A stretch of 64,000 nt of DNA, taken from contig JBBIHC010000002.1 of assembly GCA_037447235.1 (NCBI GenBank), positions 5,951 to 69,950 on the forward strand. Direction: 5' to 3'. The notes beneath the pieces were generated by a model that had not been told where the DNA came from, did not search any database, and saw only the letters and a program-made list of their open reading frames with translations. Origin of the DNA: Candidatus Micrarchaeota archaeon (lineage in GTDB: Archaea > Micrarchaeota > Micrarchaeia > Anstonellales > Bilamarchaeaceae). This document shows positions 40,892-61,078 of this stretch, in pieces (within the stretch, counting starts at the first letter, position 1; each line of letters begins with the position of its first letter). The translations under genes were made by a program, and so were the position numbers.

Positions 40892-41398
40892 TTGAAGATA
40901 AAACTGACGCCGGAGCTTGCCTATGTCATCGGGCTCTGGAGAAAAAGGCGCTCTTTTGAGGGGCTTGGCATACACGCTGAGCAGAAGCTTTTGGAAATTT
41001 TCTCGCAACAGGTGCTTGCCCAGAAACTCACGGCGCCGGAAAAACTCCTTGCGGACGGCAAGAGGGTGTATTTTTACCATACCGCATACAAGAAATTTTT
41101 TGGCGAGGTTGAAAAGGAGCAGCTTGAGAGGTTCAAGTACCTAAACGAGTATGCCGCCAATTATCTGGCCGGCCTTTTTGACGCAGTGGGCGAAATTGAC
41201 GAAAAGGGCGTTGTTTCCCTTTCCAAGCTTAACAGCGAAGACGAACTCATGCTGCTGCGCCTTGGATTCAAGACAAAAAGAAAAAAGGAAAAGTGCATAA
41301 TAGAGAAGCCGCTGGTATTTCTGGCATTCATAAAAAACTATGTAAGGGCCTCAAAGGACCAGAAGGCATTTGATTTGATTGAAAAATTAAGAAAATAG
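40892..41398 (+). CDS. Free-standing LAGLIDADG-type homing-endonuclease-like protein.
   Basis: It has two LAGLIDADG-like helices, LAYVIGLWRKRRSFEG and NYLAGLFDAVGEIDEKG. The start is TTG. It is not embedded in an intron or intein. Confidence 0.5.
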   Translation: MKIKLTPELAYVIGLWRKRRSFEGLGIHAEQKLLEIFSQQVLAQKLTAPEKLLADGKRVYFYHTAYKKFFGEVEKEQLERFKYLNEYAANYLAGLFDAVGEIDEKGVVSLSKLNSEDELMLLRLGFKTKRKKEKCIIEKPLVFLAFIKNYVRASKDQKAFDLIEKLRK

Positions 41399-41409
41399 GG
41401 AGGGCAGGG

Positions 41410-41523
41410 CTAGAGCTCGCCCACTCTTCGTTTTATCTTTCTCTTCAATCTTCTTCTCTTTTTCTTTACCCACTTCCAGCGCATCTTGTTCTTCTTTTTC
41501 CATTTTCGCGGCTTTGAACCCAT
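41410..41523 (-). CDS. rpl41e: Ribosomal protein eL41 (L41e). This small ORF is absent from the ORF track.
   Basis: The minus-strand translation is MGSKPRKWKKKNKMRWKWVKKKRRRLKRKIKRRVGEL. The core MRWKWVKKKRRRLKRKIKRR closely matches the eukaryotic eL41 [25 protein letters not shown]. An SD-like GGGGGAT lies upstream of ATG 41523. The internal Met at 41484 is an alternative start. Confidence 0.6.
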   Translation of the reverse strand: MGSKPRKWKKKNKMRWKWVKKKRRRLKRKIKRRVGEL

Positions 41524-41597
41524 CTTATCCCCCGCAATAAACGCAATATGGTAGTGACACTATTGTTTGGCACATTTTTAAAAGTATGCTGGCTTGT

Positions 41598-41837
41598 TCA
41601 TTTTTTTCTTTCGGTGATAAGCAGGCCGTCTATTATGCCGTAGGCATAATTGGCAGCCCCGAAGCCGCTGAAATAGTCGCCGGTTGCCAGAAAGTGCTCG
41701 GCATCGCTTAGATAGTTTTTTGCCCACTCATAAGCTTCCTTGTATTTCCTTTCCAGGCCGGCTTCCCTGAATTCCCCCAATATGCGTTTTAGTTTTTCCA
41801 CATCCTTTTCAGCCCGTTCTTTTTGGTCCATGGCAGG
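41598..41837 (-). CDS. Hypothetical small protein.
   Basis: Taking the start at the internal Met (MPAMDQKER...) avoids overlap with the Lhr 3' end. The conserved-looking GDYFSGFGAANYAYGIIDG motif is present. Confidence 0.35.
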   Translation of the reverse strand, partial: PAMDQKERAEKDVEKLKRILGEFREAGLERKYKEAYEWAKNYLSDAEHFLATGDYFSGFGAANYAYGIIDGLLITERKK

Positions 41838-53021: not shown

Positions 53022-53465
53022 GCAATTGTTATTTCCAGCATTCTTTAAAAATTATTCTTAATATGATAACATCCGGATATTGCCCGGATATGCGGCCGAA
53101 GCAGGAGACGGCGCCGGCGCAAGCCAAGGTTTATAAAGTGTTTCATTTATATATTTGTATGTAAGTGGAAAAATGTGGTAGTATGTTCATTCAAAGGAAG
53201 AAAGAGAGGCAGCAGTCGCAGTTGCCTGGCGTGCTGTTAGTAGACTATATGAATGAGCGGGAAACTGCAAGGCAAACCGGCATAAGCGTCAGGTGTGCGC
53301 TGGGGCTTCCGGAAGCCGCTAGAAACGCCGGAAGCGCAAGCCTGTTTTTGGCTGCCGCAAAGAACGCCGAGAAGCGCAACCTCCACGAACTTCCGCGTAA
53401 TCTTCTCCGTTTGATTAAGGAGCTTGCCTAAGGCAGAAGTTTTAAACTTATTTCTTTTCAATTAG

Positions 53466-56640: not shown

Positions 56641-57333
56641 AAGCGACGGCTTTTTCAGGAATTCAAATAATCCGGGATTGCTGCTGAACTCAGTCAGGAG
56701 GTCCTTGCTTTCAAAAGAGTATCTTTTGTTTATCTCGCCCGCTTTTACTCTCTCGTTTCCGGAGATTATGTAATTTGGATTCTGCACGATGGTTTTGTTA
56801 CCCAGGACATAGTATGCCGCGCCGTGGTTGCGTTTGAACATCGAATAGTTTGGCGTAAAAACATCCGCCACGATATTTGCCAGCAATAGGTCCTTTTTGG
56901 CCGCGTTTATGCTTGCATGGCAAAAATTCGGAGGTATCAGCAGGACATCCCCTTTTTCCGCCTCAACAATGGAAACGAAAAAAGCGCCATTCATCAGCTC
57001 TTTCTGCAGTATGAAAAAAGCATCTCCATCAAGAACCTGATAAACCTCAGGGTAAGTGAGTTTTTTTTCCGCCACCGGATGGCAATGCCCGTAAGTTTTA
57101 GCGCATTCGTCCTCATTCTTCCATTGAGGTATAACGGTTATATCGTATCGCAAGTCATTGCTTTTCATTACTTCCCTGTACATGTAATAAGCATCGCCTG
57201 CGCCCTGCGGCTGGTCTTTCAGGACATCTGCGAGTTCGGAAAATGTTCTTATGCTTGGTCGTATTGCTCTTTCGTCCGCGATTATGGTTCTTTGCGCCAG
57301 CTCTATCCTTATGGGCTGCTCATACAGGATCAT
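56614..57333 (-). CDS. pgiA: Cupin-type glucose-6-phosphate isomerase (archaeal cPGI).
   Basis: YGHCHPV...PEVYQVLDGDAFFILQ...GDVLLIPPNFCHASIN matches the Pyrococcus cPGI metal-binding His/Glu pattern. Confidence 0.55.
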   Translation of the reverse strand: MILYEQPIRIELAQRTIIADERAIRPSIRTFSELADVLKDQPQGAGDAYYMYREVMKSNDLRYDITVIPQWKNEDECAKTYGHCHPVAEKKLTYPEVYQVLDGDAFFILQKELMNGAFFVSIVEAEKGDVLLIPPNFCHASINAAKKDLLLANIVADVFTPNYSMFKRNHGAAYYVLGNKTIVQNPNYIISGNERVKAGEINKRYSFESKDLLTEFSSNPGLFEFLKKPSLLKLGRADF

Positions 57334-57713
57334 GACTCAATTACTCCTTTCATCTTTTTAAATTCCAGCTTTCTTTCCAATGCTTTATTGACCGCCAGCT
57401 TCTGGTTTTCAAATTTTTTTGCAACCGTTTTTGCCAATATCAGGAATTCGTGACCGGTTCGCCCAAATTCTTTTTCCATCCGCATAATCATTTTCAGCAT
57501 GCCTACCAGCAAAGCAGCGTTTATCGTACCGCTTCCGTTCATGCTTTGCAGGTGTGCGCTGAGCACGCCCTTTGCAAAAATAATTTTGTACCTTATTTTC
57601 TTGTCTTTTATGTTCATCAGGTTGATTCTGCCCATCAGGGTCGCAAGAGCCGTCCAGTCCTCGGTTATAAGGCTTGCTGTCAGTGGGTCTGTCAGTGTTT
57701 TTTCTGGGTGCAT
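57330..57713 (-). CDS. Hypothetical protein.
   Basis: A 127-aa ORF overlapping the pgiA start by 4 nt. Confidence 0.35.
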   Translation of the reverse strand: MHPEKTLTDPLTASLITEDWTALATLMGRINLMNIKDKKIRYKIIFAKGVLSAHLQSMNGSGTINAALLVGMLKMIMRMEKEFGRTGHEFLILAKTVAKKFENQKLAVNKALERKLEFKKMKGVIES

Positions 57714-57825
57714 GCTTTGTTTATTTTAGTGCAAATTTAAAAATATTCTGCATTCAAAAGCAACATAAATTATTAATAATCCCTTCTGCATAAAATCTAT
57801 GCTTGCTGTCACTGCCCTCAGCTCA

Positions 57826-58013
57826 CATTCGTTCGCCGAGGTTTGTTTGACCGACGATTCGGTCAAAGCCCTCAGCTTGCGCCGAGGTCGCATAAAGGTT
57901 GGCGTGAAATCCGGTAGTGCGTCGGTCTTGAAAACCGATCCCTCTGGGATTGCAGGTTCAAAAACCCTTGCTGAAAGCAATTGTTTGGCAGGGCTGAAAA
58001 TCCTGCCCTCGGC
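57826..58013. ncRNA. Candidate structured non-coding RNA. Family and strand are unknown.
   Basis: A 300-nt gap with no protein-like ORF. It holds three near-perfect hairpins: TTGACCGAcgatTCGGTCAA, GTCGGTcttgaaaACCGAT and GGCAGGgctgaaaatCCTGCC. CGCCGAGG occurs twice near the 5' end, and its complement CCTCGGCG occurs near the 3' end, which would enclose the element in a terminal stem. Confidence 0.35.
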
Positions 58014-58021
58014 GTTTTCCG

Positions 58022-59125
58022 CTAAATCAGCCTAACAAGGTCCAAAAAATCGTCTTTTATGCCAACTACGCGGAGGCTTGCGCATCTCACCCTTGCATTC
58101 GCAAGGGACGAAAAACTCGGGCTCGTCCGGCCTTCATCGCCATTAATGAGTTCTTTTATGTAGGTTCCGGCTTCCGCGGTTATCAGGAATTCTGCTTTTT
58201 TGCCGGCTTTTGACAGAAGTTTCACATCCAGAATCCTTCTTTTTCTTTCAAGAAAAGCGCGCCGGTGCTCCACGCGCTGCGGCGTCTTCTGCCTTATTTC
58301 AGTGCCGCTGAGTGCCAGCACTTTTTGCAAACTCTTTTCGTCGCATTCTTTATCAAATTCCACAATTGCGGCATAGGTTTTGTCAAAATGCGACGCTGCA
58401 ATAATCTCTACTGCACGGCGCGCCGCAGCCCTCATTTTGAAAACTTCAACATTTCCCTTTGCATTTATTTTTTTTTCGGCAAGGCTGAAATCGATCTTTC
58501 TGTTTTGCGCTTCCTTCAATTGCATTATGAACGGCCTGCCGGCTTCATTCTGTACATCTATGTCTTCCCGACCGCTTGCATGCATCGTGTAATCCTTGGA
58601 GTTCGCCATTTCTTTCAGGTCTTCCCCTATTTCCTCTTCTACGGAGTGGTAAAGCTTTCCGCTTCCACCGCATTTTTCGCAGCCTTTGCCCCCGCATTTT
58701 CCGCACAGCCATTTTGTCTGTGATAAGCCGGTTGCCAGTTTTTTGTATTTTCCGAAAACAAACAGGTCGTTCCACTGGAATTCAACGCTGGCTGCGGGCA
58801 AGCCGACTTTGATTGTTACATCGCCATCGCTTTTTGGTTTTTTTCCGGTTGCTTTTTTTATTTCGTTGTTGAGAAAAATGTTTATCGCGGTTTTTATGCA
58901 GACGGTTCCGTCCAATTTTTTGTCCCATGCCATCTCTTCTCTTGCGAGCCATCCGTTCGGAAGCGAGGTTGAGACAAAAAAGGATTCTGCTGGTGCCGGC
59001 AGCGTGTCAGCAGCCTTTTTTGCTATTTCCGGCAGCTGAAGCAGGGCGCCGTTGCAGATAAAGCAGGGGGAGCCCTCCTCGAAAGAATTATTCTTGGAAG
59101 AATTGCAAAACCTGCAGAGTTTCAT
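58022..59125 (-). CDS. pus10: tRNA pseudouridine synthase Pus10.
   Basis: N-terminal zinc motifs CRFCNSS...CFIC and CGKCGGKGCEKCGGSG. The catalytic block is HASGREDIDVQNEAGRPF. Confidence 0.65.
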   Translation of the reverse strand: MKLCRFCNSSKNNSFEEGSPCFICNGALLQLPEIAKKAADTLPAPAESFFVSTSLPNGWLAREEMAWDKKLDGTVCIKTAINIFLNNEIKKATGKKPKSDGDVTIKVGLPAASVEFQWNDLFVFGKYKKLATGLSQTKWLCGKCGGKGCEKCGGSGKLYHSVEEEIGEDLKEMANSKDYTMHASGREDIDVQNEAGRPFIMQLKEAQNRKIDFSLAEKKINAKGNVEVFKMRAAARRAVEIIAASHFDKTYAAIVEFDKECDEKSLQKVLALSGTEIRQKTPQRVEHRRAFLERKRRILDVKLLSKAGKKAEFLITAEAGTYIKELINGDEGRTSPSFSSLANARVRCASLRVVGIKDDFLDLVRLI

Positions 59126-60955: not shown

Positions 60956-61078
60956 TGCCAAGGGGGGAATTCGAATCCCCGACCTCTCGATTTCCCAGCT
61001 ATCATCGGCTTTCGCCTCAACACTCATAGGGTTTTTTGCCTATGAGTCGAGCACTCTAACCAACTGAGCTACCTTGGC
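60956..61078 (-). tRNA. tRNA-Met (anticodon CAT; elongator Met or Ile2) with a roughly 49-nt intron at the canonical 37/38 position.
   Basis: The minus strand reads GCCAAGG-TA-GCTC-AGTTGGTTA-GAGT-G-CTCGA-CTCATA[49 nt]A-TCGAG-AGGTC-GGGGA-TTCGAAT-TCCCC-CCTTGGC-A. Acceptor, D, anticodon and T stems all pair. No CCA is encoded. A TATA-like TTTTTAATC sits about 26-34 nt upstream. Confidence 0.8.

Follow-up and report, generated by a model that had tools for sequence, protein, structure and literature searches.

The region between positions 57714 and 58021 of a 64,000-nucleotide (nt) stretch of DNA from a Candidatus Micrarchaeota archaeon (contig JBBIHC010000002.1; the whole stretch is hereafter the window) carries on its plus strand a gene for a serine transfer RNA (tRNA), tRNA-Ser(UGA), which is most probably functional (probability of about 0.9) and whose transcript would need two splicing events to mature. 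The gene (57881-58014) contains two introns, one of 14 nt in the D-loop and one of 38 nt in the T-loop, and follows a leader in which the 5' end of the tRNA is copied into a hairpin structure, hereafter called a rod. An earlier note on this DNA had taken the region for a novel class of structured RNA. The gap does correspond to a structured non-coding RNA gene and not to a protein; the claim of a new class did not hold, since the RNA is of a known kind, an outcome that the note itself had named as counting against its proposal.

The tRNA-Ser(UGA) gene and its two introns

Relatives of the locus were taken as seven independent contigs of Logan and JGI assemblies (L001-L007) that encode close homologues of two flanking proteins. 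In L006 and L007, whose tRNA pseudouridine synthase Pus10 is 67% and 65% identical to that of the window, the sequence reaches past the Pus10 stop codon and carries there a tRNA-Ser(CGA) gene convergent with Pus10. This tRNA was ordinary-looking, with a 12-nt intron at the canonical position, and was called by ARAGORN. With the Rfam model RF00005 the same gene scored 49.7 bits in L007 and in a further locus, L054, where the flank of the tRNA is identical to that in L007, and the tRNAs of L054, L007 and L087 all scored 49-50 bits. The plus strand of the window from 57881 to 58014 matched the tRNA of the relatives block by block, with the addition of a 14-nt segment in the D-loop and a 38-nt segment in the T-loop. 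When both inserts were deleted in silico, an 82-nt class II sequence remained that ARAGORN called as tRNA-Ser(UGA); deletion of only one of them gave no call. The spliced sequence was identical to the L054 tRNA-Ser(CGA) at 80 of 82 positions, the two differences being the anticodon wobble base and one base in the loop of the variable arm. The traits of a class II serine tRNA were all found, namely a long variable arm (UCCCUCUGGGAU), G73 (58014) and the serine anticodon UGA, which reads UCA and, probably, UCG through wobble.

As encoded, the gene spans a 134-nt precursor body from G1 to the discriminator G73. Exon 1 (57881-57895, tRNA nt 1-15), identical to nt 1-15 of the L007 and L054 tRNA, provides the acceptor 5' strand GCCGAGG, U8, C9, the D-stem 5' strand GCAU, A14 and A15. 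It is followed in the D-loop by intron 1 (57896-57909; 14 nt, AGGTTGGCGTGAAA), placed between nt 15 and 16 (15/16) and missing from L006, L007 and L054. Exon 2 (57910-57962, tRNA nt 16-59) holds the remainder of the D-arm, the anticodon arm with the anticodon TGA at 57929-57931 (located by ARAGORN on the spliced sequence), the variable arm, the T-stem 5' strand and the T-loop segment UUCAAA. Intron 2 (57963-58000, 38 nt) was placed in the T-loop at 59/60 by homology and by a strict splice motif, and exon 3 (58001-58014, tRNA nt 60-73) supplies U60, the T-stem 3' strand CCUGC, the acceptor 3' strand CCUCGGC and the discriminator G. Immediately 3' of the discriminator, a TTTT run (58015-58018) can be read from the sequence; oligo-T runs end archaeal transcripts, and this one is a probable transcription stop.

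The frequency of such inserts was estimated by scanning a 16-mer from the window tRNA against public metagenomes and reference genomes, which yielded about 57 distinct DPANN tRNA-Ser(UGA/CGA) genes among many chance matches; loci collected in this way are a biased and partly related sample, and fractions drawn from them are rough. Splice sites were assessed by a bulge-helix-bulge (BHB) rule, i.e., a 3-nt bulge, a 4-base-pair (bp) helix and a 3-nt bulge, with complementary 4-nt strands that each lie 2 nt upstream of a splice site. Applied to some 40 canonical introns in the anticodon loop of related tRNA-Ser genes, the rule returned the junction 37/38; the outer helix was the 5-bp anticodon stem, and the central helix had 3-4 pairs. 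The anticodon loop of the window gene itself has no intron, unlike that of about 40 of the 57 related loci.

For the T-loop insert, homology leaves four possible junctions, of which 59/60 gives a perfect hBHBh' motif, with a central helix UUCA:UGAA (4/4 pairs), the bulges AAA and AAU, the 5-bp T stem as outer helix and CCC:GGG as inner helix. The 3' end of this intron is kept in the two closest relatives, L004 and L005. Inserts at 59/60 were present in about 24 of the 57 related loci, about 10 of which display the full 4-bp UUCA:UGAA/UGGA central helix.

The D-loop site of intron 1 carries inserts of about 13-80 nt in 16 of the 57 loci, with a conserved 3' end, G(C)GUGAAAU. The exact junction is ambiguous in sequence (13/14, 14/15 and 15/16 are all possible), and 15/16 was chosen because the pairing of the central helix is best and most consistent across the family in that register. 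In several D-loop introns of relatives the D-stem 3' strand is perfectly mimicked by GUGC or AUGC, which makes the central helix complete, and family members with the same D-loop insert reach 4/4 central pairs. Two points weigh against removal of the D-loop insert by splicing in the window: the insert itself forms no strict BHB in any register (at best 3/4 central pairs and one inner pair, a relaxed HBh'-like motif), and its cleavage is proposed by analogy with other organisms. Both intron sites recur in many Micrarchaeota tRNA-Ser genes. In ARMAN-2, another member of the Micrarchaeota, 56% of the tRNA genes are disrupted, some of them by introns at 59/60, and the epsilon2 endonuclease cuts strict as well as relaxed motifs in vitro (PMC3239211). 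Multi-intron tRNAs, including those with 59/60 introns, are thus already known from Micrarchaeota, and the window gene belongs to a known kind.

Standard tRNA finders miss the gene because two unusually placed introns interrupt it. On the raw 64-kilobase (kb) window, ARAGORN returned no tRNA at all and only a permuted transfer-messenger RNA ('tmRNA*') at 41133-41802, a false positive that spans open reading frames (ORFs) of 168 and 98 amino acids (aa) resembling real genes and to which nothing in Rfam corresponded. Rfam 15, which includes signal recognition particle (SRP) RNA, ribonuclease P (RNase P) RNA and the C/D and H/ACA small RNAs (sRNAs), gave no match in the region at the gathering score, and at E<=10 only three noise matches of 12-17 bits against cut-offs of 39-50 bits. 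The earlier note likewise found no resemblance to SRP RNA, RNase P RNA or a C/D sRNA, in line with the absence of any Rfam match, and the region is none of these. A Bilamarchaeaceae reference genome with the same Pus10 synteny (L143) has both intron types, and its gene was missed by Rfam like that of the window.

Rods in the tRNA leader

The 80-nt leader (57801-57880) consists of one complete and one truncated rod. The complete one, unit 1 (57835-57877, plus strand), comprises a copy of tRNA nt 1-8 (GCCGAGGT, 57835-57842), the linker TTG, a 9-bp hairpin (57846-57867), GC, and the complement of the copy, CCTCAGC (57870-57876), whose only mismatch, C.A, is at position 3. The folding energy of this rod is -20.2 kcal/mol (z = -4.3), and the spacer TGC (57878-57880, read from the sequence) separates it from tRNA nt 1. 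Upstream, the truncated and apparently older unit 0 (57801-57834, plus strand) retains the 3' half of a second hairpin type (GCTTGCTGTCAC), followed by a complement box (GCCCTCAGC, 57814-57822) and 12 nt of spacer (TCACATTCGTTC). Unit 0 corresponds to the 3' portion of units that are complete in L006, L159 and L090 (GTGACATGC.CTTGCTGTCACTGCCCTC...), and its sequence is also found in the close relative L002. In the minimum-energy fold, rod and cloverleaf are separate and the second copy serves as the acceptor strand.

Much of what the earlier note had described is located here. The perfect 9-bp hairpin (57846-57854/57859-57867) and the duplicated boxes (GTCACTGCCCTCAGCT at 57808 and GTCAAAGCCCTCAGCT at 57862, i.e., the GCCCTCAGCT box; CGCCGAGGT at 57834 and 57880) are present as reported. 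The stems it described are real as well. Among the hairpins to which it may have referred, the anticodon arm and the variable arm belong to the tRNA, the first hairpin lies outside it, in the 5' leader, and a hairpin at 57985-58006 pairs bases of the T-loop intron with the T-stem 3' strand. The complementarity between CGCCGAGG (57834 or 57880) and CCTCGGCG (58007-58014, in exon 3) is perfect, with gaps of 165 and 119 nt instead of the proposed 180 or so. A long-range stem does close the element, through the second CGCCGAGG copy (57881-57887) and not the first: as the window aligns block by block to the tRNA of the relatives, this enclosing stem is the acceptor stem. The leader hairpin and the duplicated boxes are the sole part of the region still without an explanation in known biology.

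An exact upstream copy of the gene's own acceptor 7-mer was found in about 23 of 55 distinct tRNA-Ser loci (~40%), at -46 to -91 and mostly at -46 to -61, and was absent from all of the about 36 non-Ser tRNAs found by ARAGORN in the same loci. The copy tracks the acceptor of each lineage (GCCGAGG, GCCGAGU, GCUGAGA, GCCAGGG, GCCACUG or GCCGCUG), and the spacers between rod and tRNA measure 4-15 nt in relatives. A covariance model (R1) was built from 17 rods (alignment A1); with E-values that are rough, its matches at E<0.1 numbered 25 in 469 kb of DPANN loci and zero in 610 kb of unrelated loci, and every match lay on the strand of the adjacent tRNA. Within the 64-kb window the leader rod was the single match (43.4 bits, E about 1e-7), and no copies of the element were found elsewhere in the window.

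When 20 rods were folded, 17 closed the full acceptor-like helix and three paired the inner 4-5 bp only (z from -2.5 to -7.1). All seven pairs of the inner helix were changed on both sides, i.e., covaried. Pairing cells amounted to 83.6% in the MAFFT alignment and 90.7% in an alignment fitted to the model (A2, the window rod with 24 others, the sequences being related), compared with 31-51% when the 3' partners were slid by 1-3 columns, and none of 500 shuffles reached the observed pairing. An acceptor-like 7-bp helix, coaxial with a second helix, is thereby conserved in structure and not in sequence. Mismatches in the acceptor-like helix clustered at positions 2 and 3, affecting 15 of the 20 distinct rods there versus two elsewhere, and the base following the rod helix was never G, whereas the tRNA discriminator is G; this pattern could be due either to function, e.g., avoiding recognition as a tRNA-Ser acceptor stem, or to shared descent.

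The same architecture, i.e., X, a hairpin, the reverse complement of X, a spacer often ending in UCAU, and X again, where X is adjacent tRNA sequence, was encountered at other tRNAs. In the metagenome contig Ga0078972_1002682 (L087, 1000-1500, minus strand), which carries a tRNA-Leu(UAG)-tRNA-Ser(UGA) cluster, the tRNA-Leu(UAG), whose variable arm contains an insert, has upstream of it a rod, found with R1 and a motif search, that is based on its own acceptor GCAGGGG, and the tRNA-Ser(UGA) has three rod units upstream, the most distal of which is degenerate. In Bilamarchaeaceae DRTY-6 scaffold_1 (L205, 5300-5500, minus strand), a tRNA-Met with exons identical to those of its orthologue in the window has a leader with a 17-nt copy of its own 5' end and a type-2 hairpin as in unit 0, without the reverse-complement segment. 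The intron of that tRNA-Met holds an extra 46-nt rod-like insertion beside its 3' splice site, which is not found in the window's tRNA-Met and in which the exon-start copy pairs with its complement, this pairing providing the inner helix of a relaxed splice motif. The orthologue in the window, tRNA-Met(CAU) at 60956-61078 (minus strand), has an intron of about 48 nt at 37/38 with a good BHB (central helix CUCA:UGGG); it scored 58.8 bits with Rfam and was missed by ARAGORN.

Rod architecture was also found within anticodon-loop introns, in tRNA-Ser(CGA) of L159, L090 and L105 and in tRNA-Ser(UGA) of L215. In these introns the final 9 nt of exon 1 are repeated (GGUCUCGAA or GGUCUUGAA) with ..CUCAU in front, a motif that also ends many leader spacers, and in L159 and L090 the exon-1 copy reduces the central BHB helix to 2/4 pairs. 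Two recurring types of hairpin sequence are common to the leader and intron contexts. The units farthest from the tRNA were the truncated or degenerate ones (unit 0 of the window, L023, L105 and L143), and it appears that new units join an array at the tRNA boundary, with the older ones decaying upstream. Together, the occurrences at tRNA-Leu and tRNA-Met and in introns and the decay of distal units suggest recurrent duplicative insertion at tRNA boundaries, with some copies becoming introns or lying within them.

The AT-rich stretch at 57714-57800, which lies between the tRNA unit and the divergent gene of a 127-aa protein and in which TTTAAA-type boxes are readable, is presumed from its sequence to hold the promoters of both. 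In relatives, such TATA-like boxes were located 33-41 nt upstream of the first acceptor copy, and at the same distance from tRNA nt 1 in loci without a rod. This spacing was held in orthologous promoters with versus without a rod (L022 versus L138 and L026; L165 versus L057 and L095), although transcription starts placed from TATA-like boxes are rough. The kept box spacing, and spacers of 4-15 nt that could not accommodate a promoter, make it almost certain by inference that rod and tRNA are transcribed together. The transcript would probably start in or upstream of 57801-57835 and stop at the T-run at 58015. The leader rod would fold on itself and leave the true acceptor 5' strand (57881-57887) free for the 3' end; the base pairing of the copy is probably maintained because an unpaired copy would be a competitor of the true 5' strand in pairing with the tRNA 3' end. 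RNase P would most likely remove the 5' leader, and the archaeal tRNA splicing endonuclease would cut the BHBs, strict around the T-loop intron and relaxed around the D-loop intron. A ligase would then join the three exons into the 82-nt class II tRNA, and CCA would be added afterwards.

The leader could itself be read as part of the split gene, with the first GCCGAGGT copy as the real 5' exon and 57843-57888 as a third intron at 8/9, the 3' end of which would repeat exon 1. Such a reading would account for copies that start exactly at tRNA nt 1 in the tRNA-Ser, tRNA-Leu and tRNA-Met cases, for a distance from promoter to first copy that equals the distance from promoter to tRNA in loci without a rod, and for copies that sometimes extend to nt 14 or 17, within the D-loop; moreover, the rod-like element in the L205 tRNA-Met intron does form a relaxed splice motif. 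The splice geometry, however, does not fit, as direct repeats at both junctions make the central strands identical and not complementary, and no BHB motif was obtained in any register from -10 to +9 across 23 loci, nor in a scan of the window. The variable length of the spacer (4-15 nt), the use of the second copy as acceptor strand in the minimum-energy fold, and tandem units, which are easier to explain in a leader, also argue against a third intron, which was considered unlikely.

With the rods placed in the leader of the tRNA-Ser(UGA) gene, they look like duplicative hairpin insertions repeatedly added at the tRNA 5' boundary, and may tentatively, and with considerable doubt, be regarded as an undescribed family of such small insertions in Micrarchaeota tRNA genes. 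Against a selected role as RNA, single rod mismatches of the C.A/A.C type were as frequent as G.U in the stems (a tally from folds and counts), which leaves no clear sign of selection on the plus-strand RNA, and compensatory change in a palindrome can also come from template switching without selection. Once released, the minihelix might also act in its own right by mimicking an acceptor stem. When viral contigs were scanned with the tRNA 5' end and, separately, with the rod pattern, only chance matches to unrelated high-GC phage sequence were obtained, and a virus attachment site is for that reason without support.

Other readings of the region and its neighbourhood

The tRNA could be a decaying pseudogene with disabling inserts instead of introns. 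The D-loop insert without a strict BHB motif would fit this view, as would the fact that all seven related contigs (L001-L007) stop in this intergenic gap, either in the tRNA or in the rods, so that the assembly is hard and perhaps imperfect here; these ends are likely assembly breaks at tRNA-Ser exons common to isoacceptor genes and at short repeats, a varying number of rods in the population being a further possibility. Decay is however at odds with exons that remain 80/82 identical to those of L054 although the flanking Pus10 is only ~65% identical (the latter figure from L007), both changes being at harmless positions. The T-loop insert, with a perfect splice motif and a 3' end kept in L004 and L005, and insert sites that are common to many genomes with conserved boundary motifs, likewise point to introns. 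A pseudogene was therefore judged very unlikely.

The proposal of the earlier note, a stand-alone novel structured RNA of about 220-300 nt with three hairpins closed by the CGCCGAGG/CCTCGGCG stem, could draw on the missing Rfam match, on stems that are real and on a minus strand that folds better than its shuffles (z = -3.2). On the plus strand folding energy was less distinctive (z = -1.8, with 12 of 200 shuffles folding as well), and folding energy alone is weak evidence for structure, whereas the comparative evidence is strong. Every conserved block fits the tRNA-Ser cloverleaf, the blocks outside the tRNA fall exactly where relatives have no insert or inserts of other lengths, and L006, L007 and L054 carry an ordinary tRNA at the same place, which makes a novel RNA highly improbable.

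A functional minus strand, as a 3' untranslated or terminator structure of Pus10 or as an sRNA, is just as improbable: the minus strand folds more stably, and the C.A mismatch of the two CCTCAGC/GCCGAGG stems becomes G.U on it, but the mismatch of relatives in that helix is C.U or C.C, mismatched on both strands, all R1 matches are on the strand of the adjacent tRNA, and the tRNA accounts for 134 bases without free parameters.

Some further candidates were rejected outright. For a CRISPR array, identical direct repeats of 24-37 nt with unique, non-palindromic spacers were taken as the standard; here the repeats measure only 8-24 nt and correspond to the adjacent tRNA, each variable part forms a perfect hairpin, and no more than three units occur. 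An H/ACA guide RNA, prompted by the neighbouring Pus10, was dropped once the relatives were read, and so were a retron RNA, a CRISPR-like mini-array, an integron attC-like site, a kink-turn and a split or permuted tRNA.

The region of interest sits between two genes on the minus strand. The gene at 58022-59125, with its stop codon at 58022-58024 on the strand opposite to the tRNA gene, encodes the tRNA pseudouridine synthase Pus10 (Pfam Pus10_C, E = 1e-54), whose nearest named relatives belong to Candidatus Bilamarchaeaceae and Micrarchaeota (55-59% identity); a scan of reference genomes with Pus10 peptides returned no relatives. On the other side, the orphan gene at 57330-57713 encodes the 127-aa protein, which has no Pfam family and only four homologues (71-100% identity) among 5.8 billion proteins, all of them adjoining a gene for a cupin-type glucose-6-phosphate isomerase. 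Two ORFs reported within the gap are present (57799-58035, plus strand, 78 aa; 57726-57980, minus strand, 84 aa), and neither has a Pfam match. As to the description of the gap in the earlier note as the largest one of the window, 53022-53465 was likewise free when only ORFs of at least 100 aa were counted.

Significance and comparison with known systems

With a gene that escapes both Rfam and ARAGORN, this genome would count as having no tRNA-Ser(UGA), and L143 likewise. Counts of tRNAs in DPANN, and the completeness and codon-usage inferences made from them, would be biased unless multi-intron tRNAs are searched for explicitly. The locus adds the combination of a D-loop intron at 15/16 with a T-loop intron at 59/60 in a class II tRNA. 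The leader rods may be the more interesting by-product: they covary, copy the tRNA 5' end, are largely specific to tRNA-Ser (plus Leu and Met), and have an architecture in common with elements in introns. If they arise by duplicative insertion, rods would be snapshots of the birth of non-canonical archaeal tRNA introns, an insertion being harmless in the leader and spliceable where a BHB can form, and the origin of such introns could become directly testable in one lineage. In the literature searched, nothing relevant was found on a leader rod or leader minihelix or on RNase P in Micrarchaeota.

The closest counterpart of the disrupted gene is found in Candidatus Micrarchaeum acidiphilum ARMAN-2, where pre-tRNA-Cys(GCA) has a 13-nt intron at 59/60 and pre-tRNA-Pro(GGG) has introns at 53/54 and 59/60, cut by the epsilon2 endonuclease (PMC3239211). 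ARMAN-2 and the window share the lineage at phylum level, the 59/60 position, more than one intron per gene, strict and relaxed BHBs and the escape from tRNA finders (PMC3239211). The window gene differs in being a class II tRNA-Ser, in having its second intron in the D-loop at 15/16 and none in the anticodon loop, and in being known from sequence alone. Thermoproteales and other Crenarchaeota have up to three introns per tRNA, at many non-canonical positions (PMC3239211, PMC4033280); as in the family described here, D- and T-arm introns have BHBs made partly of exon sequence and the intron mimics the pairing partner of the exon, although the lineage is distant and its endonuclease is of the (alpha-beta)2 type.

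For the rods, resemblances are looser. Comparable shapes are found in acceptor-T-arm minihelices and in tRNA-like processing signals, among them plant mitochondrial t-elements. Like them, the rod has a 7-bp helix of acceptor sequence on which a second helix stacks, and its extra bases lie on the 5' strand, as do those at tRNA positions 8-9; it differs in having no T-loop, never a G after the helix, and mismatches at position 2 or 3 in 15 of 20 cases, so that the resemblance is one of shape only (the minihelix concept is reviewed in PMC4033280). By analogy, RNase P, RNase Z or the CCA-adding enzyme could in principle recognise a rod-like shape. The nearest published idea to the rods is the mobile-element model put forward for Caldiarchaeum subterraneum, in which a 5' fragment of tRNA-Thr upstream of a disrupted tRNA-Thr gene was ascribed to integration of a mobile element (PMC3293823). 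Both cases present a partial copy of the tRNA 5' end upstream of a functional gene, tied to the question of intron gain (PMC3293823). While the Caldiarchaeum fragment is 1.8 kb away and flanks a recombinase gene (PMC3293823), the copy in the window lies 46 nt away, with no mobile-element gene nearby, is followed by a hairpin and its own complement, and belongs to a pattern that recurs in tandem.

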